This document shows positions 2,607 through 45,764 of a stretch of DNA of 53,406 nt, piece after piece. Numbering within the stretch: the stretch's first letter is position 1; each line of letters starts with the position of its first letter. The translations under genes were made by a program, and so were the position numbers. The notes under the pieces were generated by a model. That model saw only the letters and a list, made by a program, of their open reading frames with translations, ran no database searches and had not been told where the DNA came from. This DNA is from Gammaproteobacteria bacterium (GTDB taxonomy: Bacteria; Pseudomonadota; Gammaproteobacteria; Nitrosococcales; Methylophagaceae): contig QNEY01000001.1 of NCBI GenBank assembly GCA_003645385.1, forward strand, positions 1 to 53,406, given 5' to 3'.

Positions 2607-3705
2607 AATCCATCCAAGCTCAGTTGCTAGAATATTGAAATGCGGCATGAGCAAAAACACGCCTGACACAATTATTGATTCGAGTTCGAAACCTGCAAGA
2701 ATGGGTTCTGCAATGCACGAAGTTCTTGCACATATGATCAGCAACAATCTTGAAGCACGCCCTGATCTGAAACCGTATTTAAAAAAGTATGATCTGGCAG
2801 ATGAAGATCAACTTGGATATTTGACATGGGCTGGCTTTGAAGCATGGAAAGAAATACGTGATGACATCAAAGTTCTTGGCATTGAAGCACAAGGAATTGT
2901 TCACATACAAGATGATTGGGCAGTGACAGGAACAACTGATCTATACGGTGAAACATTAACCGATGAACTCGTTGTCCTTGATTGGAAATCTTCACAAGCA
3001 GAATCCGACACGGAATCACAGTTGACAGCCTATGCCTTTTTGATCAGCAAAACTTTGAAAAAGAATTATGAAACAATTAAATTGATCACTGTTTGGGCAA
3101 GACTTCAAACAATCACCATTGTTGACATCACAGCTGCCGAACTTGAAAAGTTTGAAGATGATTTGATGGAGTCAATCGTGTCTGATCAGTATTCACCCGG
3201 TGATCATTGCTTGTATTGTTCACATCAATATGAATGTGAAGCAAAAAGTAAGATGTTGATTTCAGTTTCAAATGATCTTCAAATAAAAAGTGACAACTCA
3301 ATTGCAAGCATCATTGATCTTGCAAAGCAATATCCAAAAGTGAAGATTCTTGAACAAGCAATCAAAGATTTCAAAGACATTGTGAAAGATCATCTGAAGA
3401 ACAATGATCCAGTGCTGCTTGACGATGGGCAATATCTTGGATTATCAACACGGAAAACTGAAAAACTTGTATCAGACAAAGCATATGAAATGATTTGTGA
3501 AGAAATTGGAATTGAAGTGTCAGAATCATTCAACACTTTCAAAGATGCAATATCTTTGAACAAATCAAAAGCATTGAAAATTATTTCAGATCAAGCTCCA
3601 CGTGGAGAAAAGAAAGAAGCAAAAGCAGCTTTCATTGAAAAGCTGAAAGAAGAAAAAGCAATGACTGTAAGTGAAACATTCCTATTTAATATCTCTGGAG
3701 GATAA
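2596..3705 (+). CDS. PD-(D/E)XK exonuclease, Cas4/RecB-like with Fe-S cysteine motif
   Basis: TTDLYG ... VVLDWKSS gives the D...(D/E)xK core. C-x2-C-x5-C (CLYCSHQYEC) plus an N-terminal Cys (ILKCG) matches the Cas4/AddB-type cluster. ATG at 2596 follows AAGGAG. Confidence 0.75.
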   Translation: MTNEIHPSSVARILKCGMSKNTPDTIIDSSSKPARMGSAMHEVLAHMISNNLEARPDLKPYLKKYDLADEDQLGYLTWAGFEAWKEIRDDIKVLGIEAQGIVHIQDDWAVTGTTDLYGETLTDELVVLDWKSSQAESDTESQLTAYAFLISKTLKKNYETIKLITVWARLQTITIVDITAAELEKFEDDLMESIVSDQYSPGDHCLYCSHQYECEAKSKMLISVSNDLQIKSDNSIASIIDLAKQYPKVKILEQAIKDFKDIVKDHLKNNDPVLLDDGQYLGLSTRKTEKLVSDKAYEMICEEIGIEVSESFNTFKDAISLNKSKALKIISDQAPRGEKKEAKAAFIEKLKEEKAMTVSETFLFNISGG

Positions 3706-7243: not shown

Positions 7244-8013
7244 AACAAAGGAGTATAAAAGTGGCAAAAAGATTCACAGAAAAAAACAAATGGCATGACA
7301 CTTGGTATCGTGAACTGTCACCGAATGCAAAAAATGTGTATGAATATATGTGTGATAATTGCACGATTGCTGGACTGTTTGAAATTGATCACTGGCTGAT
7401 GGGAATGTTAATCGGCTTCTCTGAAGATGATGCAAAGAAAGCATTTCAAGAATGTTTGAAAGATAAAAAGGAGGGATCCATTAAAGTTGAGGTTGTCAAG
7501 GGCAAAGCATTTCTTTGGAACTATGTCAGACAGCAGCAACCGAAAGGATTGTATGACAGCAACAAAGCACACAAGGGATTAATTCGTGAGCTTGAAACAT
7601 TGTCATCAAAATTTGAAGGTGCAAAACTTGCACTTGAATGGGGATATAAGGAATCAAGCAAAGATCCAAAAGATGACAGCTTGAAAAGCAAAGTCGGATA
7701 CACAAAAGACTTTGAAAGGTTCTGGCTGGCATACCCACAACGCATTGGGTCAAACCCTAAGAAGCCTGCCTATGACAAGTTCAAGCAGATCATCAAGAAA
7801 GGTGAAGCAACAGCTGATGACATGATCACTGGTGCAAAACATTATGCTGATCACATGCACAAAATTGATCGTGTTAATACTGAATTTATAAAGATGGCAA
7901 AAACATTCCTGAACCAACGGGAATTTAATGATTACAAAGATCAAGTGCATCAGCCAGCAAAGATCTTGAGGAAAGAAGAAACTGGCGGCATTTCTCAATT
8001 CGGTGATAACTAA
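7240..8013 (+). CDS. Putative replication initiation / replisome organiser protein
   Basis: Immediately upstream of dnaB and stop-start coupled to it (TAATG). The C-terminal FERFWLAYPQRIGSNPKKPAYDKF motif is common in phage replication proteins. Alternative start is GTG at 7261 after AAGGAG. Confidence 0.4.
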   Translation: MKQRSIKVAKRFTEKNKWHDTWYRELSPNAKNVYEYMCDNCTIAGLFEIDHWLMGMLIGFSEDDAKKAFQECLKDKKEGSIKVEVVKGKAFLWNYVRQQQPKGLYDSNKAHKGLIRELETLSSKFEGAKLALEWGYKESSKDPKDDSLKSKVGYTKDFERFWLAYPQRIGSNPKKPAYDKFKQIIKKGEATADDMITGAKHYADHMHKIDRVNTEFIKMAKTFLNQREFNDYKDQVHQPAKILRKEETGGISQFGDN

Positions 8014-10463
8014 TGAAAGCAAGCAAAACACCGCCACAAAATCTTGAAGCAGAAGCATCTGTGCTTGGCTCAATGTTATTGTTACCAGAACAGATCCCAC
8101 TGATTGTTGGTAAGCTGGATCAGAACGATTTTTATATGACACAGAATGCTTTGGTATATTCTGCCATGCTTCACTTGATTGACAAGAACATCAAGATTGA
8201 TCTTGTCACATTGAAAGAAAGACTTGTTTCATGCAATGAACTTGATGAAGCAGGTGGAATAAAACGCTTGATTGAACTTGAAGAAATTGTGCCACATGCA
8301 CAGAACTTGAAAGAGTATGTGGATATTGTTCACAACTATTCAATCAGAAGGAAAATGTTGTATGCTGCACAGATTACAACCGATCTTGCATATGACGGAT
8401 CAATACCACTTGATGACGTTGTTGATTCTGCACAAAGAGAAATTGAAGCAGTTGCAACAAGATTTGATATGATCAATCGTGGTTCTGGCATTGACAGCAA
8501 AGATCATCTGATGGAAGAAATCTATACTGAAATAAAATCAGATAGCACATTAGACAGATCGACCGGATATATTGGCATTGACTACTCGCTCGGTGGAATT
8601 AAATCATCTGATATGATAGTGCTGGCTGGTAGACCAAGTTCGGGCAAAGCACAGCCCTTGGATGCAAAAGTATTGACACCTAATGGATTTGTATTAATGG
8701 GAAGTTTGAAACTGAATGATTATGTTTTAACACCAGATGGCAGCAAGTCTAAAGTAATTGGCATTTATGAACAGGGAGTTAAATCAGTTTATGAATTGCA
8801 ATTTTCTGATGATTCAAAATCTCAATGCACAGAAGATCATTTGTGGTTGACAACAACACGCAATGAACGCAGATCAAGATTAAGAAAAGATGGAAAAGTT
8901 AGAACGCTCAAGGAAATTAAAAACACATTAATTAGACAAGATGGGCAAGCTGGAAACCATCAAATACCGTGGACAAAACCTGTGGAGTTCAAATCGCAAA
9001 AAGAAATACTGCCAATAGAACCATATCTATTGGGAATGTTTTTAGGTGATGGCAGATATGATAGAACAGTCAAAATATGGAATGAAGAAAAAGATTTGCA
9101 AGATAAAATAATTAGCAAATTACATATTGATGATACTGCAACAATAACAGAACCAAATATAATCAGGATTGAAAGAAAAAAACGAAATAATCAGAAATCT
9201 GAATTTGCTAAAAGTTTAGATGAATTAGGATTAAGCATTCCGGGGTCTGCCTATAAATTTATACCGTCAATCTATTTATACGCTTCCCCGTTTGACAGAT
9301 TGGAATTGTTAAGAGGATTAGTTGATTCTGATGGATATGTTAATAACGGTGCTTTAGTTGAATATTCTACTATTTCAGAAATGCTGAAAGATGATATTAG
9401 TTTTTTGATTCGATCTTTAGGTGGAAAAGTTACAGTAACAGAGAAACCAAAACCACGCTATACCTATAAGGGAGATATGAAAATAGGTAAATTGGCATAT
9501 CGCATTTTCTTTTCATTTCAAAATAATACAGTTCCAGTTTCATCAAAAAAACATTTATCAAGATGGAAAGGACTTAAACGTATAGCAGGTCACGCAATTA
9601 AATCTGTAAGATACATTGGCAAGAAAATATGCAGATGTATTCAAATAGAAGATCATAGAGGATTGTATTTGACAGATGATTTTATCCCAACACACAACAC
9701 AACGCTTGCATTGAACATTGCAAACAATATGGCAATTGCAAAGCACCGTGTGGTGATCTTCACGCTTGAAACTTCAAAGTCAGAAATATACAAAACATTT
9801 CTATCTATGAACGGTGGTGCTTTTAGATTCAAATTCAATCCATTCTGGAAAGATAAGTGGAACAGTCTTAATTCAGAATACACAAACAAAGCCCATGAGT
9901 TTTGCAAAAATCTTGATGTTCAAATTCGTGATGAAAAAGAGCTGTATAGGAATCCCAGAAAGATCAGAAATTATTTATTGCAGCAAGACAGAAAAAGAAA
10001 GATCGGTCTCGTCATCATTGACCAGTTTACGTTGATGAATCACGACCATAATCAGAACCGCAAAGACTTGAACATGGAAATGTCAAGCAACATTATCCAG
10101 AACATGTGCAAAGACTTAGAAATCCCAGTAATACTTTTGCATCAATTAAATAGATCGGTTGAAAAAGATGTCCGGTATCCAAACATGTCTGATCTCCGTG
10201 AATGTGGAGCATTGGAACAAGATGCAGATGCAATCATCTTTCTGTCAAAAGTAATTAAAGCAAATGAGTCAGGTGGCAGAATGTTTGACGAAAAAGGTAA
10301 AGATCGAATTTGCTCAATTGCGAAATCAAAACTCGGTGCTGTTGAAAGTTATTCAATGCAATTGGCAACAGACACAATGACATTCATTGCAGACAACGAG
10401 CAAGAAGAAATGATCAAATTGAAAATGGAAGAAATGAAAGGCACTCTTTCAAAATGGGAATAA
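8013..10463 (+). CDS. dnaB: Replicative DNA helicase DnaB, interrupted by an intein
   Basis: N-terminal PPQNLEAEASVLGSMLL signature. Walker A is split as GRPSSGK / TTLALN. C-terminal RecA-like motifs (VIIDQF, LHQLNRSVE, SDLRECGALEQDAD). The mature extein would be 466 aa. Confidence 0.93.
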   Translation: MKASKTPPQNLEAEASVLGSMLLLPEQIPLIVGKLDQNDFYMTQNALVYSAMLHLIDKNIKIDLVTLKERLVSCNELDEAGGIKRLIELEEIVPHAQNLKEYVDIVHNYSIRRKMLYAAQITTDLAYDGSIPLDDVVDSAQREIEAVATRFDMINRGSGIDSKDHLMEEIYTEIKSDSTLDRSTGYIGIDYSLGGIKSSDMIVLAGRPSSGKAQPLDAKVLTPNGFVLMGSLKLNDYVLTPDGSKSKVIGIYEQGVKSVYELQFSDDSKSQCTEDHLWLTTTRNERRSRLRKDGKVRTLKEIKNTLIRQDGQAGNHQIPWTKPVEFKSQKEILPIEPYLLGMFLGDGRYDRTVKIWNEEKDLQDKIISKLHIDDTATITEPNIIRIERKKRNNQKSEFAKSLDELGLSIPGSAYKFIPSIYLYASPFDRLELLRGLVDSDGYVNNGALVEYSTISEMLKDDISFLIRSLGGKVTVTEKPKPRYTYKGDMKIGKLAYRIFFSFQNNTVPVSSKKHLSRWKGLKRIAGHAIKSVRYIGKKICRCIQIEDHRGLYLTDDFIPTHNTTLALNIANNMAIAKHRVVIFTLETSKSEIYKTFLSMNGGAFRFKFNPFWKDKWNSLNSEYTNKAHEFCKNLDVQIRDEKELYRNPRKIRNYLLQQDRKRKIGLVIIDQFTLMNHDHNQNRKDLNMEMSSNIIQNMCKDLEIPVILLHQLNRSVEKDVRYPNMSDLRECGALEQDADAIIFLSKVIKANESGGRMFDEKGKDRICSIAKSKLGAVESYSMQLATDTMTFIADNEQEEMIKLKMEEMKGTLSKWE
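8649..9698 (+). mobile_element. Class 3-type intein with LAGLIDADG homing endonuclease, in the DnaB P-loop
   Basis: A 350-codon in-frame insert. It starts AQPLDAKVLTPNGF, has block B TEDHLWL, two LAGLIDADG motifs (LLGMFLGDGRY, LLRGLVDSDGYV), block F CRCIQIED and block G IPTHN, followed by Thr+1. Excision restores GRPSSGKTT. Confidence 0.9.
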
Positions 10464-11795: not shown

Positions 11796-12146
11796 ATGAA
11801 CACAAAAGAACAGCAGCAGTATTTGATTGAAGATGAAATGCGGAAGGCACTTGATGTCTGGACCGAAGCCAGCAATGCCGTCAAGACTCTTGAAGAAAGT
11901 CACAAGCAAGCAATCAAAGAATTGAAAGATGAACAGAAAGGCGAAATGCAGAACAAGAATGAAGATTATGACAGCTCATTATCTGGCATCAAAAAGATTA
12001 TGAGAAAGCACGATCTGGAAATTCAAATCGTCACCATGAAAAATGGCACTGTCAAAGAAATCAGATTTGATAAAAGAATCACAATCACCGATGTTGACAG
12101 TGATGCTGCACAGACTTTGCCCGGCATGAAAGAAGATGACGAATAA
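11796..12146 (+). CDS. Hypothetical coiled-coil protein
   Basis: GGAGG SD. 116-aa ORF. Confidence 0.55.
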   Translation: MNTKEQQQYLIEDEMRKALDVWTEASNAVKTLEESHKQAIKELKDEQKGEMQNKNEDYDSSLSGIKKIMRKHDLEIQIVTMKNGTVKEIRFDKRITITDVDSDAAQTLPGMKEDDE

Positions 12147-12258: not shown

Positions 12259-13341
12259 ATGGCTATAAATGTTTTATCATTATTTGACGGCATGAGTTGC
12301 GGACAAATCGCATTGAATCGAACCGGAATTGAATACGATAATTACTTTGCTTCCGAAATAGATAAATATGCGATTAAAGTTACTCGAGCCAACTATCCAG
12401 ATACTATTCAGTTGGGAGATATCAGGCATGTTGAAGCTGTTGATTTACCTAAGATTGATTTGTTAATAGGTGGTTCTCCGTGTCAGGGGTTTAGTTTTTC
12501 TGGCAAGCAATTAAACTTTGATGATCCTAGAAGCGCATTATTTTTTGAGTTCGTCCGATTGCTGAAAGAATGCAAGCCTAAATATTTCCTCCTTGAAAAC
12601 GTGATAATGTCTCAAGAAAGTAACGATGTGATTAGCTGTACGTTAGGTGAGATGTTCCCAAATTGCGTGAGCCAAAAACAACTTTTCCAAGCCGGTAGAC
12701 TTGAGCCTATTTGTATCAATTCCGCTTTAGTATCGGCTCAAAACAGGAAACGATTATATTGGACAAACATCCCAGGGCTTACGCAGCCAAAAGACAAAGG
12801 AATCATTTTAGAGGATGTATTGGAAGATTGCTCCAATTCAGTATATCAACGAGGCAGAGGCAATAACAAGGGCGGCATTAAAAGCAATAAAAGCCCTTCT
12901 ATAACATCTAGTCGGTGGGAAGAAAATGTAAAGGTTCCTGTTATTAAAATTAACAATGAACTGATATATAAGCCTCATAAGTCTCAATGTTTAGTGGCTA
13001 ATTATTATAAAGGTAGTGATAATCACGGAATGAGAACCGGCTGTATCGAAGTTGGTCATGCCGAAATAAACGGAAATGACATACTGAAAAGAGTATATTC
13101 ACCTAAAGGCAAATCTCCCACATTGACAGCTATTTGCGGAGGTAATCAAGAAAATAAGATAGCAATAGATCATAAAAGGTGGAGAAAATTAACTCCGGTA
13201 GAATGTGAAAAATTGCAAACTGTCCCGGACAATTACACAAACCACGTAAGCCCTACGCAACGATATAAAATGTTAGGCAATGGATGGACTGTTGATGTGA
13301 TAGTCCACATTATAAAAAGTATGAAAGATTGCCCAGAGTAA
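12259..13341 (+). CDS. DNA (cytosine-5)-methyltransferase
   Basis: Motif I LSLFDGMSCG, motif IV GGSPCQGFS, motif VI LLENV, motif VIII QNRKRLY, motif X GNGWTV, all in canonical order. Confidence 0.9.
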   Translation: MAINVLSLFDGMSCGQIALNRTGIEYDNYFASEIDKYAIKVTRANYPDTIQLGDIRHVEAVDLPKIDLLIGGSPCQGFSFSGKQLNFDDPRSALFFEFVRLLKECKPKYFLLENVIMSQESNDVISCTLGEMFPNCVSQKQLFQAGRLEPICINSALVSAQNRKRLYWTNIPGLTQPKDKGIILEDVLEDCSNSVYQRGRGNNKGGIKSNKSPSITSSRWEENVKVPVIKINNELIYKPHKSQCLVANYYKGSDNHGMRTGCIEVGHAEINGNDILKRVYSPKGKSPTLTAICGGNQENKIAIDHKRWRKLTPVECEKLQTVPDNYTNHVSPTQRYKMLGNGWTVDVIVHIIKSMKDCPE

Positions 13342-15373: not shown

Positions 15374-15724
15374 ATGAAAACTGAACAATTAATATATCTG
15401 GCAAGTCCATACACAGATGATTCTGCAAAGATAGTCAATGAACGATATGAAGCAACATGCAAGATCACAGCTTTATTGTTGAGTCAAGGATTATATGTTT
15501 ACAGTCCGATTGTGCATGGTCATTGCTTGATAGGTTATGGACTTGAAACGGATTGGGAAAATTGGAAGCATTTTGACAAACTGATGATAGATAAATCTGA
15601 TATTATCTACGTGTTGATGATTGACGGTTGGAATGAGTCAATTGGTGTCAACGCTGAAATTAGATATGCGATTGACTTAGGCATGGATGTTAAATACTTA
15701 GATGTCAACGGAGAAATTCAATGA
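15374..15724 (+). CDS. DUF1937-like / nucleoside 2-deoxyribosyltransferase-fold protein
   Basis: LIYLASPYTDD...YVYSPIVHGH and WNESIGVNAEIRYA match the DUF1937 pattern as I recall it. Confidence 0.5.
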   Translation: MKTEQLIYLASPYTDDSAKIVNERYEATCKITALLLSQGLYVYSPIVHGHCLIGYGLETDWENWKHFDKLMIDKSDIIYVLMIDGWNESIGVNAEIRYAIDLGMDVKYLDVNGEIQ

Positions 15725-17091
15725 TTAAACCAAACGGAAATATTGAGCATATGAATTATCATCAATTTATTAAAACCAAAGAGCGTAACATTCAACCTAG
15801 TGGATTTTCAGATGATGTATCTGGATATGGATTATTTGATTTTCAGGAGCATTTAACTTCGTGGGCATTGGAGCAAGGTAAGTCTGCGATATTTGCAGAT
15901 TGCGGATTAGGCAAAACACCGATGCAACTTGTATGGGCTGATCGTATAGCTAGAAAATTTGGAAAAGTCTTGATCGTATCACCATTAGCAGTATCAGACC
16001 AGACAGTAAGAGAGGCTAAGAAGTTTGGCATTGACGGAGTTAAAAGATCGAAAAATGGAGACACTTACAGAATCACAGTTACTAATTACGAGAGATTGCA
16101 TTATTTTTCACCAGATGAATTTTCAGGGATTGTATGCGATGAATCATCAATCTTGAAAAACTATGCAGGCAAGACTCGTCAAGCGATAACAGATTTTATG
16201 CAGAAAATACCATACAGATTACTATGCACAGCAACTCCAGCACCTAATGATTATATGGAGCTTGGCACTTCATGCGAGGCGTTATCTATCATGCGTAGAG
16301 TTGAAATGTTAGCAATGTATTTTATACATAATAGCGGCAGCACTCAAGCATGGGATTTGAAAGGTCATGCAGCGGATGTGTTTTGGCGGTTCATGGCTTT
16401 ATGGTCTAGGGCGATGCGTAAGCCAAGCGATCTAGGATTTGATGATGGTGATTTTATTCTGCCAGAACTTAAGCATAATCTTATCACAGTTAAAAGTAAG
16501 CCTCTACATGGCGATTTGTTTCCGGTGGAAGCATTGACTCTAAACGATCAAAGGGCTGAACGTAGAAGCACTCTTGATGACAGGTGTAAGGCTGTAGCTG
16601 ATATTGCTAATAGTAATGACGATTCTTTTTTGGCATGGTGTTCTTTGAATGCAGAATCCGATTGTTTGACAAAATATATAAATGGTGCCGTATCAGTTAG
16701 TGGGTCTGATTCAGACGATGAAAAAGAACGTAAGATGATGGAATTTTCAGATGGCACTATCAGATGTCTTGTCACAAAACCAAAAATCTCTGGATTCGGT
16801 TTAAATTGGCAACATTGTAATCAGATGAGTTTCTTCCCATCTCACTCGCATGAGCAATATTATCAAGCCGTTCGTAGATGTTGGCGGTTTGGACAGGAAA
16901 ACGATGTAACAGTTAATATTGTTACTTCCGAAGGTGAGATAGCAGTTCTTGAAAACATGCGAAGAAAAGAAGTAGCAGCCAATGCAATGTTTGATTCGAT
17001 AATTAAACATATGACAAACGCTATTAAAAATATTGATAACACTTACAAACCAAATAGAAAAATGGAGATACCGGCATGGCTAAATGTATGA
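15721..17091 (+). CDS. SNF2-family helicase/ATPase
   Basis: Motif I ADCGLGKT, motif II VCDESS, motif III CTATPAPN, motif VI QAVRRCWRFGQ. ATGA overlap with the upstream gene. Confidence 0.8.
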   Translation: MIKPNGNIEHMNYHQFIKTKERNIQPSGFSDDVSGYGLFDFQEHLTSWALEQGKSAIFADCGLGKTPMQLVWADRIARKFGKVLIVSPLAVSDQTVREAKKFGIDGVKRSKNGDTYRITVTNYERLHYFSPDEFSGIVCDESSILKNYAGKTRQAITDFMQKIPYRLLCTATPAPNDYMELGTSCEALSIMRRVEMLAMYFIHNSGSTQAWDLKGHAADVFWRFMALWSRAMRKPSDLGFDDGDFILPELKHNLITVKSKPLHGDLFPVEALTLNDQRAERRSTLDDRCKAVADIANSNDDSFLAWCSLNAESDCLTKYINGAVSVSGSDSDDEKERKMMEFSDGTIRCLVTKPKISGFGLNWQHCNQMSFFPSHSHEQYYQAVRRCWRFGQENDVTVNIVTSEGEIAVLENMRRKEVAANAMFDSIIKHMTNAIKNIDNTYKPNRKMEIPAWLNV

Positions 17092-18008
17092 ACCAAGTAA
17101 TTACAGATCAATATTCGTGTTATCATGGAGATTGTGTAGAATTAATTAAAAACATACCTGATGATTGCATTGGATTATCTGTGTTTTCTCCACCATTTGC
17201 AGAGCTATATGCTTATAGTGATAGTCCGAGAGACATGGGGAACAGTAAAAGTTATGATGAGTTCTTCCAGCAATTTTCATATCTCATTTCAGAGTTAAAT
17301 CGAGTTACGATGCCTGGCAGGATAGTTGCAGTTCATTGCATAGATATTCCGGCTATGAAAGAGCGAGACGGATATATTGGTCTAAAGGATTTTCCAGGTG
17401 ACATAATTAGAGCTTTTCAGAAATGCGGATTTATTTATCACTCAAGACATGCGATATGGAAAGACCCGTTGACAGAAGCGACTAGAACAAAGGCACTTGG
17501 ACTGATGCACAAGCAGCTATGCAAAGATTCTGCTATGTGCAGATCAGGATTGCCTGATTACGTGTTGGCATTTCGTAAAAAAGGTGACAATGCCATTCCT
17601 ATTGAAAAGCAGCATGGATTCACAGAATATCATGGCTCAAACATAATCACAGGCGAAGGTGTTAAACGAAGTCATAATATTTGGCGGTCTTATGCTAGTC
17701 CTGTGTGGATGGATATCCGCCAATCTAATACTTTGAACAAGAAAAATGCTAGAATTGAAAAAGACCAGAAACACATATGCCCATTGCAGCTAGATGTCAT
17801 TGAGCGAGTTGTGTCTTTATGGTCAGTTGAAGGTGACATCGTATTGACTCCATTTGGTGGCATTGGTTCAGAATCTTATGTCGCCATAAAGAACAATCGC
17901 AGGTCAATTTTATTTGAACTTAAAGAATCCTATTATGAGCAGGCGGTTATCAATTGTAATAACGCTGCAAATATTAAATATTCAGAAACCAATGATATGT
18001 TTTTATAG
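17076..18008 (+). CDS. DNA amino-methyltransferase (N4-C or N6-A; beta-class order)
   Basis: Motif IV SPPF (VFSPPFAELY) precedes motif I (VLTPFGGIGSE), as in the N6_N4_Mtase family. Overlaps the helicase gene end. Alternative start is ATG at 17088 (ATGA overlap). Confidence 0.8.
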   Translation: MAKCMNQVITDQYSCYHGDCVELIKNIPDDCIGLSVFSPPFAELYAYSDSPRDMGNSKSYDEFFQQFSYLISELNRVTMPGRIVAVHCIDIPAMKERDGYIGLKDFPGDIIRAFQKCGFIYHSRHAIWKDPLTEATRTKALGLMHKQLCKDSAMCRSGLPDYVLAFRKKGDNAIPIEKQHGFTEYHGSNIITGEGVKRSHNIWRSYASPVWMDIRQSNTLNKKNARIEKDQKHICPLQLDVIERVVSLWSVEGDIVLTPFGGIGSESYVAIKNNRRSILFELKESYYEQAVINCNNAANIKYSETNDMFL

Positions 18009-38273: not shown

Positions 38274-38807
38274 TTATCTGATCCTTAAATCAAAGCTGTA
38301 TGGTCGGAGTTTCTTCATAATCTTTGCTGTGAAAAACTGTTCATAATCAAGATTGTTTGAACTGCCATTTGGTCTGTTCCAATATGCTTCATAAACAAGA
38401 TCAAGCAAGACTTGTTTCAGCCCAGCAGGACAATCAGTTCCATCTGTATTGTAGCCAGCTCCATAGGTTACTTTCCAGCGTTTTGTGCCAGATCCAAATG
38501 AATCATATGTGCTGTTGCATTTGAACTCTATCCGCATTTCAGTATGGATAAAATCTTCAGTCAATTCGGTATCGTCATAATTATCTTCAATCTTTGTAAC
38601 TGAATTAATCGGAAGTAATTGTGGGCGTAAAGATTTATTGCCACCATCGCAATTTGCAATAGCAGTGTCATCACCATCATGAAAATATATTCCAGTTTTC
38701 TGTGCAATGAAGTTCTGCATTGATTCAATGATAATTGTCACCAAAGTATCTTCCGATGGTGCTATTATCTGCAAGAACTGTTTTGTTGTTGTAAGATCAA
38801 CGATCAT
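38274..38807 (-). CDS. Head-tail adaptor (gp6-like connector)
   Basis: The N-terminus DLTTTKQFLQIIAPSEDTLVTIIIESMQNFIAQKTG matches the gp6-like connector pattern. ATG at 38807 follows AGGTGA. Confidence 0.6.
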   Translation of the reverse strand: MIVDLTTTKQFLQIIAPSEDTLVTIIIESMQNFIAQKTGIYFHDGDDTAIANCDGGNKSLRPQLLPINSVTKIEDNYDDTELTEDFIHTEMRIEFKCNSTYDSFGSGTKRWKVTYGAGYNTDGTDCPAGLKQVLLDLVYEAYWNRPNGSSNNLDYEQFFTAKIMKKLRPYSFDLRIR

Positions 38808-38988
38808 TATTTTCACCTATTGTTTGAATTTCATTGACGTTTCCAATAATCACAAGCATTTTGCACGCTTCAAGTTTTCTTGCTTGTGAATAACCCATCA
38901 TATCCTGATCACCTTTGAATCTTCTGAATAGTCCTTCAGATGTTGATATTGCACCTTCTGTCAGCCATTTAATCAAAACTTTCTTCAT
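38797..38988 (-). CDS. Hypothetical small protein
   Basis: ATG at 38988 overlaps the GT2 stop (TAATG). 63 aa. Overlaps the adaptor start by 11 nt. Confidence 0.4.
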   Translation of the reverse strand: MKKVLIKWLTEGAISTSEGLFRRFKGDQDMMGYSQARKLEACKMLVIIGNVNEIQTIGENNDR

Positions 38989-39734
38989 TACCAATATTGT
39001 CCTACGCCATTAGTTCCAAAATGCAGCACATTATTTGAATCTGGTGCTGGTGCAGATTTCACTTCAGGAAATTTCTTTTGAACCTCTTTCCACCATCTTG
39101 AATCTTCTTTCCTGTTTTCTCTGAACTTCACTTCATCCCAAATCCACTTCGGGAATGCCATGTTGCATCCCATGATTGCAGCTGTTCCATTTTCAAATCC
39201 TCTGTGTCCTATTCTACTGCAATTTGAAAGCATCTTCAGCTGATCATAAGTGTCAACAGCTTCTGGAATCAGTTTGATTTCAGGAATAAAATATCTGGGT
39301 CCAACAAAGACTTTCTTCATCTGATCTTTGCTGATGAATACAGAATCAACATATACTTGACAATGGATACTAGCACCCATTTTCCAGCCAACATATGACC
39401 ATTTATTGAGCTTGCCAGAATAAATATCTCTGTATGTTTCAATGAAATTCTTTGGGAATGTGCAATCAGCGTCAATCGTCACAATTATATCAATATCTCT
39501 GCAATGCTCTTGTATGGCATTGTTAATTGCAATGCCACGTGAATATGCGTTTGGGTGAAGATCGTGACGGGAAACGTGTATATTATCGCTCTGGTCAAAG
39601 GCTGGTGATATGTCCATACTGTCAAGAGCAACAATAACTTTGTCAGCTTTGACAGTCTGATTTCTAAGTGCATGAATGATCTTTGACCACTCTGCATATT
39701 GTTTGTGAAATGCGATAATCAAAGCAATTTTCAT
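38988..39734 (-). CDS. Glycosyltransferase, GT-A fold (family 2-like)
   Basis: N-terminal beta strand MKIALIIAFHK..., NQTVKADKVIVALD, and the DxD-type motif VTIDADCTF. ATGA overlap with the upstream gene. Confidence 0.65.
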   Translation of the reverse strand: MKIALIIAFHKQYAEWSKIIHALRNQTVKADKVIVALDSMDISPAFDQSDNIHVSRHDLHPNAYSRGIAINNAIQEHCRDIDIIVTIDADCTFPKNFIETYRDIYSGKLNKWSYVGWKMGASIHCQVYVDSVFISKDQMKKVFVGPRYFIPEIKLIPEAVDTYDQLKMLSNCSRIGHRGFENGTAAIMGCNMAFPKWIWDEVKFRENRKEDSRWWKEVQKKFPEVKSAPAPDSNNVLHFGTNGVGQYW

Positions 39735-40315
39735 TTTTCTATTCTTTCAAATACCATCACGTTTTTCCAATACCACCATTGCACGTTGGATTCTTTCCAA
39801 GATTTTCTAAGATTTTCAGTCATGCTTTTCTTGAAGGTCAATCCCTTGCTTTCAATCTTGTCAATCCAATATTGATGTGGTTTTTCATTGACATGATTGT
39901 TGCCACCTTGATTCGGAACAGCACCAGAAAAAATCAACCATTTTCCAGCAATGTCAAGAATGTTGTCAATTGCAACATCTTCAAATTCAGCATCAATATG
40001 TTCAATTACCTCAAGGCAGAATGCAAGTTCTGCTGGCTGACATCCAATATTGTTTTTCAAATTTGCAATCCTAATGTTTTTAGGATCATAAGCAAAATCT
40101 TTTGAGTGTTCAGAAGCATCAATGCCATAGACTTCAACGCCAACATTGTTAAATTCGTTCAAGTGATTGCAAGGACCGCAACCAATATCAATGACTGTTT
40201 TTGGGTGAAACAGATCAACAATTGAATCAACCATAAAACGAGCTTGTTCAATGTGTGCTGGAAGTGCCTTGCCAGTCATCCATTCTTTGTTGTAAATATC
40301 AGATTCATTTTTCAA
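39731..40315 (-). CDS. Class I SAM-dependent methyltransferase
   Basis: Motif I VIDIGCGPCNH, post-I acidic YGIDAS, and FCLEVIEHI. Apparent TTG start at 40315 overlaps the upstream gene by 11 nt. Confidence 0.7.
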   Translation of the reverse strand: MKNESDIYNKEWMTGKALPAHIEQARFMVDSIVDLFHPKTVIDIGCGPCNHLNEFNNVGVEVYGIDASEHSKDFAYDPKNIRIANLKNNIGCQPAELAFCLEVIEHIDAEFEDVAIDNILDIAGKWLIFSGAVPNQGGNNHVNEKPHQYWIDKIESKGLTFKKSMTENLRKSWKESNVQWWYWKNVMVFERIEK

Positions 40316-40868
40316 AGTTCACCACTCCACAAATATGATTGTTATTGCCTTGAATGATCTTCACTTTGCCATATTTCTCAAAATATTTAATTGCTGCTTC
40401 ATCATTTGCCCAGCCGATCAGATGTCCATCATCAATCAGTTCACGTTTTGTTGGCATTCCACGAGGAACTGAAAAGATCAAACGATATTTTGCAACCATT
40501 TTGATTCTGTTCATTATGTTTGCGAGTTCTTCCCATGTGAAATGTTCGAGTGTTTGACAACAGACAACAGTGCCAAATGAATTTCTCCAATGCTCGCCAA
40601 GTTTAGTTACATCACCTTTCAAGAATATCTTATCTGGCATTTGCTCTTTTGCTTGCTCGATTAAATATGAACTAATATCCATTCCAACATACTGTGTTTT
40701 AGGATCAAGATATTTGCAGAAACGACCAAATGCACAGCCGATCTCAAGAACTGATCCTTTGACATTTCTGACAGCTGATGCAAACTCCATTGAACGATCT
40801 CTGAAGTCATTTTTGTCAGTGTATTTCTTGCCTTTCATGTTCCACCAGTCAAAACTATTTGCTTTCAT
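40305..40868 (-). CDS. Class I SAM-dependent methyltransferase
   Basis: Motif I VLEIGCAFGRF, YVGMDIS, and VCCQTLEHF. Confidence 0.7.
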   Translation of the reverse strand: MKANSFDWWNMKGKKYTDKNDFRDRSMEFASAVRNVKGSVLEIGCAFGRFCKYLDPKTQYVGMDISSYLIEQAKEQMPDKIFLKGDVTKLGEHWRNSFGTVVCCQTLEHFTWEELANIMNRIKMVAKYRLIFSVPRGMPTKRELIDDGHLIGWANDEAAIKYFEKYGKVKIIQGNNNHICGVVNFEK

Positions 40869-41442
40869 ATTCTTTCCTTATTTGTTTGTAAAGTTCATAT
40901 TCTTTTGCAGCATTATGACTTCCAATTGGTGACAGTGTTCTTTCTTGTTCGTGCAGAACTTCAGGTGCTTTGTCATATTCCCAATAATGATATGGCTTTT
41001 TATACCCCCAGAAATCAAAGCCATACAAATCACAATGTTTCAATCCCACTGTTTTATGCACCCAATAAATGAATGTGATCCCTGTGCTTGGCTTATGCCC
41101 TAAAAGACTCCAAAGTTCTTGATGGATTTCTTTTTCAATGAATCTGATTCTTGTGTTCATTGGAACTTTTCTTCCGGCAAGATGTATTCTGTTCGGATCG
41201 GGCCATGTGCAATAAACTTTGTCAAATGGTCCATATTCCCATCGTTCAAGATATTCTCCACCGCATGGTGTATCGTTCAAGCAAGTCACATAGATGTTTG
41301 CTTTCTTGCCATAATCTTCTGTATGAACCGGCTTAAATCCTTGAAATCTGACAACATAATCATGGCTGTCAATTTGATTGCCGAGGCATTTACCAAATTC
41401 ACCAATTCCATTTCCGACTATTGCCATAACATCAGGAAACAT
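40855..41442 (-). CDS. GT29 (sialyltransferase)-like glycosyltransferase
   Basis: Sialyl-motif L-like AIVGNGIGEFGKCLGNQIDSHDYVVRF, S-like PSTGITFIYWVHKTVGLKHCDLYGF, motif III-like HYWE, and VS-like HNAAKE, in canonical order. Confidence 0.6.
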   Translation of the reverse strand: MFPDVMAIVGNGIGEFGKCLGNQIDSHDYVVRFQGFKPVHTEDYGKKANIYVTCLNDTPCGGEYLERWEYGPFDKVYCTWPDPNRIHLAGRKVPMNTRIRFIEKEIHQELWSLLGHKPSTGITFIYWVHKTVGLKHCDLYGFDFWGYKKPYHYWEYDKAPEVLHEQERTLSPIGSHNAAKEYELYKQIRKEYESK

Positions 41443-43462
41443 CAATTTTCCATTTCTGCATATTTGTATATGCTCTTTTCACGATCTCTGGAACATCCCA
41501 GTCAACTGCTGATAATATCCCGTCACCACAATCACCAATTTCACCATCCCAATTATGCCATGCTGCCATTCTTTCATTTCTTGCATTGTCATCACCATCA
41601 CGCTTCAAATAAAAATCATGTTTTGCTTGCATGATCTGCTTTGGCAGACAATGACCAAGATGATAAATTCGTGCTTCAGGAATAAGCAACGCTTCTTTTT
41701 CTCTGATGCTGTGCAATCGTTTGTGATTAGCATCAACCATTGTTGGATGTTCTTTGAAGTGATATGACTTTCTTAAATACGACCAACGATAATGCGGACA
41801 TGCAGAACCGCCATCTTGAAGTGGCAATCCCCAACGCCATGATCTTTTTAGCTTCGGATCGTCATGCACATATTGCTTCAGATTGTGCCAGAAATTAATC
41901 CATCTAGGACATCCGAAATCAATATCTGCTTCAATCCATTTGTCAAGACCAGTCCAGATTTCATCACCGTCAAGCAAGATGTGATAATTGCCCGACATCT
42001 GATCAAGACACCAGTTCCGCATTTGACGTTTATCATTCCATACTTTTTCAAGCATGATGATTTTATTATCGGGATCTGGAAAGTTTTTAATTCTTTCAAG
42101 TGATCCATCGTCAATATTCTGTGCATGATATGTCTTGCCATAAGCAATGACAATTTCATCAACGTATGGATAAATACTTTCTAATGATTCAGAGCAAACG
42201 CCCCAATATGCAAGCAACTGTGCTGAAATCTTTTTCTTTTTGATTGTGTGAAATCTCAAATCCTCAACAGATGATTTCATTGCTTCCATGCCAAATGTTT
42301 CAGCTTCTTTTTCTGGTTCAATCAAATTAGCATACGTTTCTTTTTCTTTGACAACCGTGTTGACAAGTTCTTTGTATGCTTCACGGTCATTCCATTTTGC
42401 ATATGATATTCTACTGCCATACACTTCATGCAATACGGGCAGATCATACACAACAACTGGTGTGCCACAAGCGAGTGCTTCCATCGGCACCATGCCACAT
42501 CCTTCAAATAAACTTGGAGCAAGAACAATGTCAGCATTCAGATAATATTGATACTTTGTTACATCGTTGATTTGCTCCAATATTTTATACTTATGTTTTG
42601 CAGTGTCAGCTGGAACTTTCTTTGGCTGACCGATCATCATAAGATCCATATCACAATCAAGTGCTGCGATTGCTTCAAGAGCAACGTCACCGCCTTTATA
42701 TTTTGGTCCACGTGCTGACCAAACCGCATACGGTCGCAAATACGGACTGTCAAGTTTCTTTGCTTCTTCAAGCGCAAACGTATTAACGGCTGGAAGTAAA
42801 ACACCAATCTCAGAAACGTCACGATTGACAAACTTTGCAAGATACTTTGCTGACTCTTTTGAATTTGCGATTAAGTAATCAGCTTGAGTGAACAATCCTG
42901 ATCTGATATTTAATTGTTTTGCATAGTCTGGGCAAAATTCAGCCACCCAGTTTGGTGTTTCAAAGTTAAATATAACAAGCGGTATGTGTGGATTATCTTT
43001 CTTCCACTGAAAAGCTGCCCGACCAATTGTGCTTTTTGTATCAGTCACATACATATCAAGATCCATTGGAATTTCATCCGAGTTCCATATTCTGATCTTC
43101 AGATTTTCGTACTTCGGATAATCATTCATCCAAAGCGGATATCTGTCTGTAACAACATACACTTCAGCACCAAGTTCAGCCAGATTCAAAGCATATTGAT
43201 AAAGATGCAATCTGCCACCAGAATACCATGGGCTTGTTTCTATGAAAATGCCAATTCTTTTTATTCTTGTATTCACGCCAGCTGGCTTTCCAATTCTGCC
43301 ATGACTTTTATGTGACAATCTTCTGTGACCAATCTTTCCTTCTTTCAGCATTCTTTCAGCATCAGACCGAAGCATGACTTTGATTAGATCGCCAGAATTG
43401 ATGGTGACTTTATCGCCATTACTATTAATTACATCTTGCTTTATCAACGATCTGTAATACAT
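41432..43462 (-). CDS. Two-domain glycosyltransferase (GT-B/GT4-like plus GT-A-like)
   Basis: GT4 signature PSLFEGCGMVPMEALACGTPVVVYD in the first ~400 aa. The C-terminal ~260 aa carry YHILLDGDEIW (DxD-type) and DEIVIAYGKT. Confidence 0.75.
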   Translation of the reverse strand: MYYRSLIKQDVINSNGDKVTINSGDLIKVMLRSDAERMLKEGKIGHRRLSHKSHGRIGKPAGVNTRIKRIGIFIETSPWYSGGRLHLYQYALNLAELGAEVYVVTDRYPLWMNDYPKYENLKIRIWNSDEIPMDLDMYVTDTKSTIGRAAFQWKKDNPHIPLVIFNFETPNWVAEFCPDYAKQLNIRSGLFTQADYLIANSKESAKYLAKFVNRDVSEIGVLLPAVNTFALEEAKKLDSPYLRPYAVWSARGPKYKGGDVALEAIAALDCDMDLMMIGQPKKVPADTAKHKYKILEQINDVTKYQYYLNADIVLAPSLFEGCGMVPMEALACGTPVVVYDLPVLHEVYGSRISYAKWNDREAYKELVNTVVKEKETYANLIEPEKEAETFGMEAMKSSVEDLRFHTIKKKKISAQLLAYWGVCSESLESIYPYVDEIVIAYGKTYHAQNIDDGSLERIKNFPDPDNKIIMLEKVWNDKRQMRNWCLDQMSGNYHILLDGDEIWTGLDKWIEADIDFGCPRWINFWHNLKQYVHDDPKLKRSWRWGLPLQDGGSACPHYRWSYLRKSYHFKEHPTMVDANHKRLHSIREKEALLIPEARIYHLGHCLPKQIMQAKHDFYLKRDGDDNARNERMAAWHNWDGEIGDCGDGILSAVDWDVPEIVKRAYTNMQKWKIDVS

Positions 43463-44206
43463 CTATTGATCCTTATCCTTGTCAGCAACTTCAATTGATG
43501 ATCTTGATACAAAATTAAGATCAAATAATTCAATGACTCTGAATGAAGCAGAATCACCAAACAATTCAACTTTTGCACGATTATCTTTTAATAATACAAT
43601 GATCTTTCCGTCAAAGTTTTTGCCGTTGAACATTGTCTTGACCAGATCGCCTTCTTCAAGTTCTTCAGAATCGGGATCTGATTCAAGTGGAACACCTTTC
43701 AAGACTTTTCTGGCAAGATGACAGCCAAGAATGAAACTGACTTTTCTTTGCTTCATCAATGATTTAATTTGCTTTTCGATCTTTGATGGGTTTTCATTGA
43801 AGTCAAATGAAATCAACATGACATGTTCTGCTTCTGTCAAAACTTTATACCGATCTTTGACTTTCAGCAAAGCATGTTCAATTGTCAGTTTGTCATCACC
43901 AGAATTTGGCTTTGGTGCAATGTAATTCATCAGCATTGCATAAACAGAGTTTGCTGGCATTCCTAAAAGATCAGCTGTTTCTTTGATGATTTCTTTGTTG
44001 TTGTCATAGATTAAATCGCCTTTGGTTTTCTCACTTCCCATAGGCAATACAGCTTTCAGCTTGATCTTGCCAGCTTTGATCTTCTTTTCTTTTAGCAATT
44101 TCTCAAGTTCAGGACGTTGCCTAATATCAAAATGTGATCCTTTTGAAATCTTCACTCTGACATCATTCTGCATTCTTTCAAAATCTTTTAGTGCGGTCAC
44201 GATCAT
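43463..44206 (-). CDS. Hypothetical protein heading the glyco-cassette
   Basis: ATG at 44206 follows GGAGGA; the track start at 44248 is a GTG. The C-terminus GDLVKTMFNGKNFDGKIIVLLKDNRAKVEL looks like a small beta-barrel (Tudor/SH3-like). Confidence 0.5.
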   Translation of the reverse strand: MIVTALKDFERMQNDVRVKISKGSHFDIRQRPELEKLLKEKKIKAGKIKLKAVLPMGSEKTKGDLIYDNNKEIIKETADLLGMPANSVYAMLMNYIAPKPNSGDDKLTIEHALLKVKDRYKVLTEAEHVMLISFDFNENPSKIEKQIKSLMKQRKVSFILGCHLARKVLKGVPLESDPDSEELEEGDLVKTMFNGKNFDGKIIVLLKDNRAKVELFGDSASFRVIELFDLNFVSRSSIEVADKDKDQ

Positions 44207-44283
44207 TTCATATCCTCCGGTTTTATAAAAAATTTCAATCTGATTCACTTCAATAAATGAAACTGACAGAAAGTTTTTTAATA

Positions 44284-44319
44284 GGTGGTGCAGAGTTGAA
44301 AGATAAACTCCACACCACC
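44284..44319 (-). other. Stem-loop downstream of the capsid gene
   Basis: GGTGGTG (44284..44290) pairs with CACCACC (44313..44319), and GAGTT with AACTC across a 2-nt bulge. No U-tract follows on the transcribed strand, so it may be an attenuator or stabiliser rather than a strict terminator. Confidence 0.3.
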
Positions 44320-44345
44320 CACGCCCTTACCAAGAGAATAATATT

Positions 44346-45764
44346 TTAACTTCCTTGACCAACTAAAATACTGAATGCACGTTCAAACATAGGCTGTCCA
44401 CCAGCAAGACCGTCAACACGGTAAGCAATGGCACCTTTTTTAAACTCTGCATGTTCACTTCGAGCAATTGCAACTTCTTCTTCAAGGACAAACCAGTAAT
44501 TCATCAGGTTGCCGAAGATGATGTCACCAACTGTTCCGAGTGCAGAACAATTATGACTTATGAAGTATGGATGATTATCCAAACGATCATAAGGACCAGA
44601 TCCCACTGAATTGGAGAATAAAGGATCTCCGTTGGTATCTTTTTGCTTTTTCAAATACTTCAGAACCAAGTCAGCCATGATAAAGCCAGCACCGTTACGG
44701 TGAGCAGCTTTGACTTCGTGTTCCAGATTGATCAGATCATCATACACAACTTGCAAGTTTGTTTGACGACCGACGGTTCTGATTCCAGCCATGACAGTTA
44801 TGCCAAGAGGCTGTGCAACTCCTGAACCTGACATGATTGCTTGATCAAACTTGGCGATCAATGCAGCACGCAATTTTGAAACAAGTTCATTTTCAAAAGG
44901 TAACCGTGAACGCATCAGCAAAGTTTTGGTGAAACTTGTGTATGCTTTCAGAGGATAGCAATTGATTGTGACACGTTCAAAATCAATTTCAGTATCAGGA
45001 GCATCTGATTTTTCATCAGTCCATTCAACTGCAATACCACCAAATTCATTGCTGTCATCTTGCTCAAGTTTTGTTTCAACAAGTGAGCCGCCGACAGTGG
45101 TCTTTTTGTTTACTCGCATATACAGACTCGGTTCATCAAATGGCAACTGAAGGATCTGATTGCCGTAATCGGGCCATACTAAGTTAGCACGACCACCGGC
45201 TGCATCATTGTCTGTTGAAGCCATCGGAAGTGCCTTGCCACCAAACGGCATACCGGGCAACATTCTACGAAGTAAAGAATGCGGAATGACAGCTTGAAAT
45301 CCACCACCCTGTTTGTTGCCGATGTCACGAATTGCAGCAGATTTCGGAGTCAAGATGTTCAGTTCTTGATCTTTCATGTTCCGTTCGCCGTTCTTCATAA
45401 AATTGAAAAACGCTTCACCCTGCAAATGCTCGTGCTTTTCTTGTGAAGTATTATCAAAGACTTTGACATCATCAACTTTCTTGCCAGCAAGTGCAGCTTC
45501 ATCGGGAATAACAACTTTCTTGAAATCAGCAGCTTTTGCAAGTAGCAGATCAACATTTTTCTGTTCTTCCGCTTCTTTAATTGCTTCGGTAAGTTCATCA
45601 GAAATACTTTTGACTTCTGCATGTGCAGTGTCATAGGCTTTCTGGGCAATTTCAATGTCAGCTTCAACTTCTTTTTCCGTTGCGTCTGCAACAGCAACTT
45701 TCATTGCTTTCATTGTTTCAACAGCTTTTTGCAGCTTTGCTTGGAGTTCTTTTAACTTATTCAA
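44346..45764 (-). CDS. Major capsid protein, HK97 fold, with N-terminal coiled-coil delta-like region
   Basis: 472 aa after the protease gene. N-terminal ~100 aa are helical (NKLKELQAKLQKAVETMKAMK...). Apparent TTG start lies 6 nt after AGGAGA. Confidence 0.85.
   Translation of the reverse strand: MNKLKELQAKLQKAVETMKAMKVAVADATEKEVEADIEIAQKAYDTAHAEVKSISDELTEAIKEAEEQKNVDLLLAKAADFKKVVIPDEAALAGKKVDDVKVFDNTSQEKHEHLQGEAFFNFMKNGERNMKDQELNILTPKSAAIRDIGNKQGGGFQAVIPHSLLRRMLPGMPFGGKALPMASTDNDAAGGRANLVWPDYGNQILQLPFDEPSLYMRVNKKTTVGGSLVETKLEQDDSNEFGGIAVEWTDEKSDAPDTEIDFERVTINCYPLKAYTSFTKTLLMRSRLPFENELVSKLRAALIAKFDQAIMSGSGVAQPLGITVMAGIRTVGRQTNLQVVYDDLINLEHEVKAAHRNGAGFIMADLVLKYLKKQKDTNGDPLFSNSVGSGPYDRLDNHPYFISHNCSALGTVGDIIFGNLMNYWFVLEEEVAIARSEHAEFKKGAIAYRVDGLAGGQPMFERAFSILVGQGS

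Follow-up and report, generated by a model that had tools for sequence, protein, structure and literature searches.

Animal sialyltransferases of glycosyltransferase (GT) family 29, among them ST3Gal-I, ST6GalNAc-II, ST8Sia-III and ST6Gal-I (PDB 2wnb, 6apl, 5bo9 and 4js1), carry four sialylmotifs (L, S, III and VS) in the same order as a 195-amino-acid (aa) protein encoded by a tailed phage, and share its fold. The gene for this protein lies on the minus strand of contig QNEY01000001.1 at positions 40855-41442, within the 53,406-nucleotide stretch that was analysed as a whole and is called the window here; the window is a tailed-phage genome. With about 20% identity to the animal enzymes, the phage protein is cytoplasmic and is without their signal anchor, stem, transmembrane segment, conserved disulfide between motifs L and S, and about 90 N-terminal residues. 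Prokaryotic GT29-like proteins form the clade to which it belongs, and include bacterial sequences described in 2018 that have neither a transmembrane segment nor the disulfide cysteines (Petit et al., 2018; PMC5811610), as well as a capsule protein of E. coli K6 in which GT29 is combined with GT107 and which has been proposed to be a polymerase of 3-deoxy-D-manno-octulosonic acid (Kdo) (PMC13171606). These proteins have the sialylmotifs and are associated with ulosonic-acid pathways and other glycosyltransferases. The phage copy differs from them in standing alone, at 195 aa, in a head-morphogenesis module, its best bacterial relative being 49% identical.

Other described systems share part of this picture. 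The Campylobacter GT42 enzymes Cst-I and Cst-II have the GT-A variant 2 fold in common with the phage protein and use metal-independent chemistry on cytidine monophosphate (CMP)-activated N-acetylneuraminic acid (Neu5Ac), but they do not match it in sequence, and the sialylmotifs are poorly conserved in GT42 (PMC5811610). Maf flagellin transferases (DUF115/MAF_flag10), a separate family, offer a mechanistic precedent for direct protein modification: they are cytoplasmic, related to the sialyltransferase fold, and put CMP-activated nonulosonic acids, Neu5Ac or Kdo onto Ser/Thr before assembly (bioRxiv 10.1101/2020.06.03.131540). Poxviruses, herpesviruses and mimivirus-like viruses encode GT29 sialyltransferases that were among the fold matches in BFVD, but these are full-length enzymes of eukaryotic type that use the host secretory pathway, whereas the phage protein falls in a compact prokaryotic clade. 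In gene organisation, the locus resembles mycobacteriophage cassettes. In cluster O, an O-methyltransferase and three glycosyltransferases are reported to modify capsid and tail-tube proteins (Freeman 2023, as cited in PMC11600133). The cluster O and F cassettes have an analogous gene content, with phage-encoded soluble enzymes, an O-methyltransferase and tandem glycosyltransferases, with no GT29 or ulosonic-acid transferase reported among them (Freeman et al. 2023, as cited in PMC11600133 and PMC11256854). Virion glycosylation has been demonstrated there, whereas here it is predicted from genes. As in the mycobacteriophages, glycosyltransferases and methyltransferase are clustered within the virion structural genes, and as no homology to the mycobacteriophage enzymes was detectable, the likeness is one of organisation, not descent.

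The 195-aa phage protein is a member of GT29 on every sequence and fold criterion tested. It matched Pfam Glyco_transf_29 (PF00777) in two stretches (E=1.6e-9), scoring 38.0 bits where the curated cut-off is 23, and 52 of the 53 compact homologs that we aligned matched this family at E<1e-3. A search of the PDB with the single sequence gave weak matches to pig ST3Gal-I and human ST6GalNAc-II. The family profile, made from these 53 relatives of no more than 230 aa, aligned with pig ST3Gal-I at E=3.9e-24 (profile positions 5-182, chain residues 93-284) with all four motifs in register, and all eight of its PDB matches were GT29. An AlphaFold2 (AF2) model built with the 53-homolog alignment reached a predicted local distance difference test score (pLDDT) of 85.3 and a predicted template modelling score (pTM) of 0.85. 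The fold of this model is GT-A variant 2, that of sialyltransferases: its top 30 Foldseek matches in the PDB were all GT29, with template modelling scores (TM-scores) of 0.5-0.68 on the query and E-values down to 6.8e-6. GT42 (Cst-I/II) formed a second tier (E about 1e-2, TM-score 0.43-0.52), and besides GT29 and GT42 there was no Foldseek PDB match with a probability above 0.5. Chains of GT42 were absent from the PDB sequence and profile searches, which gave the protein no sequence-level tie to that family. The Pfam scan found no PF01973 (MAF_flag10) match at E<=1, DUF115/MptE-like viral proteins were weak fold matches only (E about 2e-2), and neither PHROGs nor NCBIfam held a family for the protein.

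An original prediction, made from the letters of this DNA alone, had placed all four GT29 motifs in order within the 195-aa product. All four strings were confirmed at their coordinates, with support from Pfam and from the profile, and the expected match to Glyco_transf_29 was borne out by a score well above the cut-off, a fold match specific to GT29, and no better match to another Rossmann-like family. Motif L occupies residues 7-33 (AIVGNGIGEFGKCLGNQIDSHDYVVRF, window 41344-41424), where AIVGNG...IDSHDYVVRF aligned with AVVGNSG...IDSHDFVLRMN of ST3Gal-I; the terminal N of the canonical pattern is replaced by Q34/G35. Motif S occupies residues 118-142 (PSTGITFIYWVHKTVGLKHCDLYGF, window 41017-41091), PSTGITF...DLYGF aligning with PSTGILS...DLYGF. 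Motif III, HYWE (residues 152-155, window 40978-40989), aligned with HHYWE, and motif VS, HNAAKE (residues 176-181, window 40900-40917), which has the H-x4-E pattern, aligned with HDGDFE, both of ST3Gal-I. In the profile alignment, the partners of H152 and H176 in pig ST3Gal-I are His302 and His319, respectively; the latter has been proposed as the catalytic base, and these roles were reportedly assigned by Rao and colleagues in 2009.

These residues are strongly conserved. Across the 53 compact homologs, which are 24-42% identical, motif residues are 89-100% conserved overall: N11 (50/53), D25 (51/53) and R32 (53/53) in motif L; G121 (53/53) and G141 and F142 (each at least 90%) in motif S; H152 (47/53) and Y153 (48/53) in motif III; and H176 (51/53) and E181 (52/53) in motif VS. 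That the motif residues for CMP binding and catalysis are near-invariant across divergent homologs is a sign that the active site is under purifying selection. The reading frame of 195 codons and a stop opens with ATG, directly preceded by a TTG codon at 41445; a second, independent assembly of the phage gave the same gene call, and the protein occurs unchanged on five contigs read. A 171-aa ORF (open reading frame) runs antisense to the GT29 and GT4 genes at window positions 41119-41634 on the plus strand; as the homology support belongs to the minus-strand frames, we take it to be a chance ORF.

In several features the protein departs from eukaryotic GT29. It is a soluble, cytoplasmic, minimal-core member of the family, whose counterpart in ST3Gal-I begins shortly ahead of motif L and ends shortly past motif VS. 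The topology of a type II membrane protein with a stem was not found in it: the maximum Kyte-Doolittle hydropathy over 19 residues was 0.81, and motif L begins at residue 7. The original prediction had remarked on one cysteine in each of the L- and S-like motifs. C19 and C137 are indeed there, but they sit off the canonical GT29 disulfide positions, are not conserved, and have no bearing on a disulfide. In the 53-homolog alignment the canonical motif-L cysteine aligns with Met6, there is no conserved cysteine at the Met6 and C137 columns, and the family consensus has none at C19, so the canonical L-S bridge is missing. A conserved disulfide between the two motifs was thus ruled out by the cysteine positions and the lack of cysteine conservation, and the absence of these cysteines agrees with the bacterial GT29 proteins described earlier (PMC5811610).

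Scanned exhaustively with HMMER, 1.84 billion representative proteins yielded 431 relatives at E<=1e-3, the closest found anywhere being 49% identical. The compact stand-alone form of about 190 aa accounts for 119 of the 257 homologs with a near-complete domain, and 127 of the 257 have N-terminal extensions. A k-mer-seeded single-sequence search of 5.8 billion proteins returned the GT29-like protein itself and nothing further. No match was obtained by tblastn of the protein against 50,697 deposited phage genomes or by megablast of the cassette region around the gene against deposited phages, and IMG/VR scans with the single GT29-like protein and with the capsid protein encoded nearby gave no relatives. 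Relatives do occur on three IMG/VR contigs and two phage-like metagenomic contigs. One of these contigs (L004) carries an overlapping gene pair, GT4 then GT29, and on another (L005) the GT29-like gene is just upstream of terminase and portal. The BFVD fold matches include a UniProt entry named 'Glycosyl transferase family 29 [uncultured Caudovirales phage]' and a 170-aa Myoviridae protein. We found no paper dedicated to a phage GT29 in the literature, and one tally of carbohydrate-active enzymes in a coral virome lists a single GT29.

The view that GT29 is mainly a family of eukaryotes and their viruses, voiced in the prediction, has to be given up, since bacterial members were described in 2018 (PMC5811610), UniProt names exist, and NCBI already labels some bacterial relatives 'glycosyltransferase family 29 protein'. 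Its further claim, that a compact GT29 in a phage would be unusual, holds in part: none was found in the deposited phage genomes, but the compact form is common among the homologs and a few viral contigs carry relatives. A phage GT29 is thus less unusual than first thought, yet rare in phages, and the protein described here is a new member of a recognised compact prokaryotic GT29 clade that is itself biochemically uncharacterised.

Two of the viral contigs show other surroundings. On a 44.8-kb IMG/VR contig (L009, 9319-14093), a compact GT29-like gene lies between pyruvyl-transferase-like and radical-SAM/SPASM genes, the latter followed by a gene for an 861-aa SPASM + Glyco_transf_7C protein, in what appears as an unusual glycan-modification cluster; a PDB sequence search with two ORFs of this contig gave no match. 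On a large viral contig of 95.5 kb, also from IMG/VR (L007, 1144-6939), the GT29-like gene is followed by GT8, an adjacency shared with the bacterial locus of the closest homolog (L002), and nearby are aldehyde dehydrogenase, glyoxalase-like, saccharopine-dehydrogenase-like and cytidylyltransferase-like genes.

Between its major capsid gene and its head-tail adaptor gene, the phage has a cassette of six tightly overlapping genes, of which the GT29-like gene is the third. Four glycosyltransferase domains and two methyltransferases are encoded between these borders, within the late operon; the cassette genes overlap or abut, their GC content is that of the phage, and inside the cassette no promoter or terminator signals were found above shuffled expectation. 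Upstream, the border is the HK97-type major capsid protein (44346-45764, minus strand; PHROG major head protein, 8.7e-47; Pfam Phage_capsid). Directly after it comes a conserved 247-aa protein (43463-44206, minus; the ORF extends to 44248 with a GTG start), which had no Pfam, PHROG or PDB match and is a candidate glycan acceptor or decoration protein. The next gene (41432-43462, minus) encodes a 676-aa two-domain glycosyltransferase with a GT4 (GT-B) domain at about residues 80-410 and a C-terminal GT-A/GT2-like domain with an LLDGDE motif. Its Pfam matches were Glycos_transf_1 (7.8e-19), GT4-conflict (2.9e-7) and, weakly at residues 451-504, Glycos_transf_2; the PHROG assignment was glycosyltransferase, its PDB matches were GT4 enzymes, and tblastn found no match for it in the 50,697 deposited phage genomes. 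An N-terminal likeness between the 247-aa and 676-aa proteins, seen by eye, was not significant (E=0.54). The stop of the 676-aa gene overlaps the start of the GT29-like gene, so the two are probably translationally coupled.

Downstream of the GT29-like gene, and overlapping its stop, is the gene for MT1, a class-I S-adenosylmethionine (SAM)-dependent methyltransferase (MT) of 187 aa (40305-40868, minus; Pfam Methyltransf_25/11/12/23/31, E down to 7e-13), and then that for a second such enzyme, MT2, of 194 aa (39731-40315, minus; Methyltransf_23, 1.2e-6). The last cassette enzyme, a 248-aa protein with an IDADC motif (38988-39734, minus), is tentatively a GT-A/GT2-like glycosyltransferase: its Glycos_transf_2 match was weak (E=8.7e-4, 19.7 bits, below the cut-off of 23.3), it had no PDB sequence match, and its single-sequence AF2 model was unusable (pLDDT 34.6). 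A 63-aa ORF (38797-38988), 33% identical to a 96-aa ORF of a related phage (L016, below), precedes the downstream border, a head-tail adaptor/connector (38274-38816, minus; PHROG head-tail adaptor, 3.9e-11). In 19-residue hydropathy windows, no transmembrane-like segment was seen in any of the six cassette proteins.

The partnership of these enzymes is supported by fusion proteins. MT-GT29 fusions of about 366 aa make up about two dozen clusters among the top 120 profile matches (P0183, P0193, P0194, P0197, P0202, P0219 and others), with an N-terminal class-I methyltransferase domain (Methyltransf_23/25/11, or Methyltransf_24 in some variants) and a C-terminal compact GT29; the methyltransferase half aligns with MT2. 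GT29+GT4 fusions also exist (P0004), and one protein combines MT, GT32, GT29, GT2 and GT7C domains. The gene order of a further locus (L020), namely GT, GT2-like, MT, GT29 and an MT2-like MT, repeats the cassette pattern; MT2 shows 26% identity over its full length (E=2e-14) to the methyltransferase whose gene directly follows the GT29-like one there.

Related phages, which were found via the capsid protein, show how the same head-module site varies (compared stretches: L016 10001-15923, L017 10001-12664, window 38274-45764). In L017 and L018, whose capsid is 43% identical, the order is capsid, a 233-aa protein and adaptor, without glycosyltransferases. In L016, with a capsid 51% identical, it is capsid, a 249-aa protein, GT4, MT, a small ORF and adaptor; the GT4 protein is 49% identical over the full length to the 676-aa glycosyltransferase at the same position, and the methyltransferase is 44% identical to MT1, while MT2 is missing from this reduced cassette. 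Compared with L016, the window has added GT29, MT2 and the GT2-like gene, and its adaptor is 37-39% identical to those of L016 and L017. This graded series (none; GT4+MT; GT4+GT29+MT+MT+GT2-like) makes the cassette an accessory, expandable island at a fixed head-module site, and the GT29-like gene belongs to its most elaborate version. In the window, in L016 (11697-12446) and in L017 (11421-12122) alike, the gene directly after that of the capsid encodes a product of about 240 aa. The 247-aa window protein is 22% identical to the 249-aa L016 protein (E=1.6e-11), and BLAST gave no match between the 233-aa L017 protein and the 247-aa protein; its occurrence in relatives with and without glycosyltransferases makes it part of the core head module. 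By eye, the post-capsid proteins of the window, L016 and L017 all have an acidic low-complexity linker and then a small C-terminal domain. The related phages have a GC content of about 58%, against 38% in the window phage, a difference indicating that the phage lineage spans very different hosts.

The genomic context of the relatives points to a CMP-activated ulosonic acid as the donor class, and so backs the suggestion, made at the outset from the motifs, that the enzyme may use a CMP-activated nonulosonic acid or related sugar. On a bacterial chromosome, the gene for the closest homolog (L002) comes directly after CTP_transf_3 (NeuA), NeuB and a HAD phosphatase of KdsC/YrbI type, with GT8 next. 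We take CTP_transf_3, NeuB and the HAD phosphatase to be the set expected for a nonulosonic acid made via a 9-phosphate intermediate, for example 2-keto-3-deoxynononic acid (KDN) or Neu5Ac. A Pusillimonas homolog is divergent from genes for KdsD, KdsA and a KdsB-KdsC fusion. NeuB/NeuA or Kds genes were found within 10 kb of the relative in 25 of 80 metagenomic loci, some of which are near-duplicates of one another, and in 17 of the 36 loci of at least 8 kb; NeuB-like genes were present in 12 of the metagenomic loci and KdsA-like genes in 6. Several relatives are fused to Capsule_synth domains, of the beta-Kdo transferase family, and GT29 as a family covers both sialic acids and Kdo (PMC13171606, PMC13213038). 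In a neighbour-joining tree of GT29-like domains, the phage protein groups with the L004 protein and the NeuB-linked L002 protein. Donor type could not be read from this tree, an attempt that failed because NeuB-linked and Kds-linked members are intermixed in it. There is a slight lean towards a nonulosonic acid over Kdo.

No ulosonic-acid synthesis or activation family was found by Pfam among the 20 largest ORFs of the replication half of the genome, and PHROGs searches with ten of them added none, so the donor must come from the host. In L002 (247-1825 and 3279-8858), the NeuA-NeuB-HAD-GT29-GT8-sulfotransferase genes form an island beside a HipA/HipB toxin-antitoxin pair, near dapA-bamC. The GC content of L002 is 36.9%, compared with 37.8% in the phage, and this likeness in GC and tetranucleotides may be a weak hint at the donor lineage or the host. 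The window contains no tRNA genes.

Following its family, the enzyme would bind a CMP-activated 2-keto-3-deoxy ulosonic acid via motifs L and S, with H152 and Y153 of motif III at the phosphate and with H176 of motif VS, together with E181, as the base that activates the acceptor hydroxyl; sugar transfer would be inverting and metal-free. The donor would be a host-supplied nonulosonic acid (of the Neu5Ac, KDN, legionaminic acid (Leg) or pseudaminic acid (Pse) type) or Kdo. The cassette as a whole would most likely decorate a virion protein, for which the capsid protein and the 247-aa protein are candidates, with a short glycan that is partly O-methylated. An acidic ulosonic-acid residue would come from the GT29-like enzyme, and MT2, the putative functional partner of that enzyme, would act on this residue or its acceptor; direct O-glycosylation of Ser/Thr, as by Maf enzymes, would be a variant of this scheme.

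Considering the position of the cassette in the head module and the mycobacteriophage analogy, glycosylation of a virion protein is the best reading of these data, and we put the chances at about even that the whole of it is right, with an ulosonic-acid transferase extending a methylated glycan on a virion protein. A number of observations weigh against it. The step to a virion target is drawn from gene position and analogy, and the donor, the acceptor and the activity of the GT29-like protein are all inferred. The protein begins roughly 90 residues into the eukaryotic catalytic domain, so that acceptor binding must differ from that of characterised GT29 enzymes. NeuB-linked members are not separated from Kds-linked ones in the neighbour-joining tree. 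No donor pathway is recognisable in the phage, which would have to rely on a CMP-ulosonic acid supplied by its host; in a Gram-positive host, CMP-Kdo would be absent. The DnaD-like loader of the phage points to no particular host, and nor do the affinities of its capsid and terminase, whose matches come from phages of unrelated hosts and reach no more than 34% identity. Finally, tblastn with the GT29-like and 676-aa proteins detected no homologs of these cassette proteins in deposited phages, mycobacteriophages included. A more specific proposal, in which the phage caps a methylated capsid or head-decoration glycan with a sialic-acid-like residue, using its own soluble enzymes and a host CMP-sugar, and in which a compact GT29 plus a methyltransferase is the minimal module for O-methylated ulosonic-acid caps, is speculative and is offered tentatively. 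To our knowledge, a sialic-acid-like sugar on its own particle has been shown for no phage.

The same chemistry could instead be aimed at the host surface, on a lipopolysaccharide or capsule, teichoic acid, S-layer or flagellin glycan, where it might block superinfection or change receptor display. Most bacterial relatives are in polysaccharide-type loci or fused to Capsule_synth, GT2, GT8, DUF4422 or Glyphos_transf domains, and modification of surface glycans by phages is well known, phage-encoded enzymes acting on Acinetobacter capsule nonulosonic acids being a reported example (PMC12053666, PMC6586298). Yet the six cassette proteins have no transmembrane-like segment and, in Pfam and NCBIfam, no initiating phosphoglycosyl transferase, flippase, polymerase or GtrA/B-type family; the cassette lies within the late head operon and not in a lysogeny or moron region, the scanned ORFs gave no integrase match, and relatives vary the cassette at a fixed head-module site. 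We consider a host-surface target unlikely on this evidence. Glycosylation of modified bases in the phage DNA, an anti-restriction hypermodification to which the GT29-like enzyme would contribute one sugar, appears improbable. Phage glycosyltransferases that hypermodify bases derived from 5-hydroxymethylcytosine (5hmC) are known (bioRxiv 10.1101/2023.12.21.572611), and this phage encodes C5-cytosine and N6/N4 DNA methylases along with a DUF1937/nucleoside-deoxyribosyltransferase-like protein. The cassette, however, is about 25 kb from the DNA methylases, among head genes, and the early-region ORFs scanned with Pfam and PHROGs include no TET/5mYOX, hydroxymethylase or similar family. The GT4-conflict match of the 676-aa glycosyltransferase would fit a DNA target, but it overlaps a generic GT4 match. 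We know of no GT29 enzyme that acts on DNA.

That the protein is instead a catalytically dead or repurposed relic, serving as a CMP-sugar- or glycan-binding module, or that its motifs resemble sialyltransferases without the corresponding chemistry, seems very improbable. With its 195 aa, it falls about 90 residues short of the solved GT29 catalytic domains at the N-terminus, the function of bacterial GT29 is given as unknown or only predicted (PMC5811610, PMC13171606), and no assayed member of the compact clade is apparent. Against this, all the motif residues for CMP binding and catalysis are kept and are near-invariant in homologs as divergent as those aligned here, the AF2 model is confident and specific to GT29, and the protein is identical on each of the five contigs read.

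If active, the phage protein would be among the smallest enzymes of sialyltransferase fold, at 195 aa and soluble, with no disulfides and no glycosylation, which would make it attractive as a minimal scaffold, both in structural studies and for sialylation or Kdo transfer by chemoenzymatic means. No member of the large prokaryotic and viral GT29 clade would have been characterised before it. Should the cassette decorate the virion, phage self-glycosylation would extend beyond actinobacteriophages and its repertoire would gain an acidic, sialic-acid-like cap, which could affect contacts of the particle with mucus, lectins/Siglecs and antibodies, with a bearing on phage therapy; this would be the first 'sialylated' bacteriophage virion. 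The GT29 and methyltransferase pair, which recurs as MT-GT29 fusions across metagenomes, would then be a previously unrecognised module. The graded series among the related phages offers a natural comparative system for cassette growth. The GT29 family in a phage is no longer surprising in itself; it is the head-module cassette and the MT-GT29 coupling that make the idea of a sialic-acid-like cap directly testable.

The rest of the genome is arranged in two modules. The structural operon, on the minus strand, encodes terminase, portal, a Mu-F-like protein, protease, the HK97-type capsid, the cassette, adaptor, tape measure and tail, and the replication module, on the plus strand, encodes DnaB, SSB, the DnaD-like loader, a RuvC-like resolvase and the DNA methylases; no integrase was matched among the ORFs scanned. 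The C5-cytosine DNA methylase, the N6/N4 DNA methylase and the DUF1937/nucleoside-2-deoxyribosyltransferase-like protein are at 12259-13341, 17076-18008 and 15374-15724, respectively, all on the plus strand. Inside two early-region ORFs there is a pair of imperfect direct repeats of 50 nucleotides with 72% identity (window 3355-3404 and 11907-11956), which probably reflects a shared coding motif or chance. In the DnaB-type replicative helicase of 816 aa (window 8013-10463, plus strand), the sequence is interrupted at about residues 430-483, between the DnaB N- and C-terminal domains, by a LAGLIDADG/Hom_end homing-endonuclease segment that is probably an intein.

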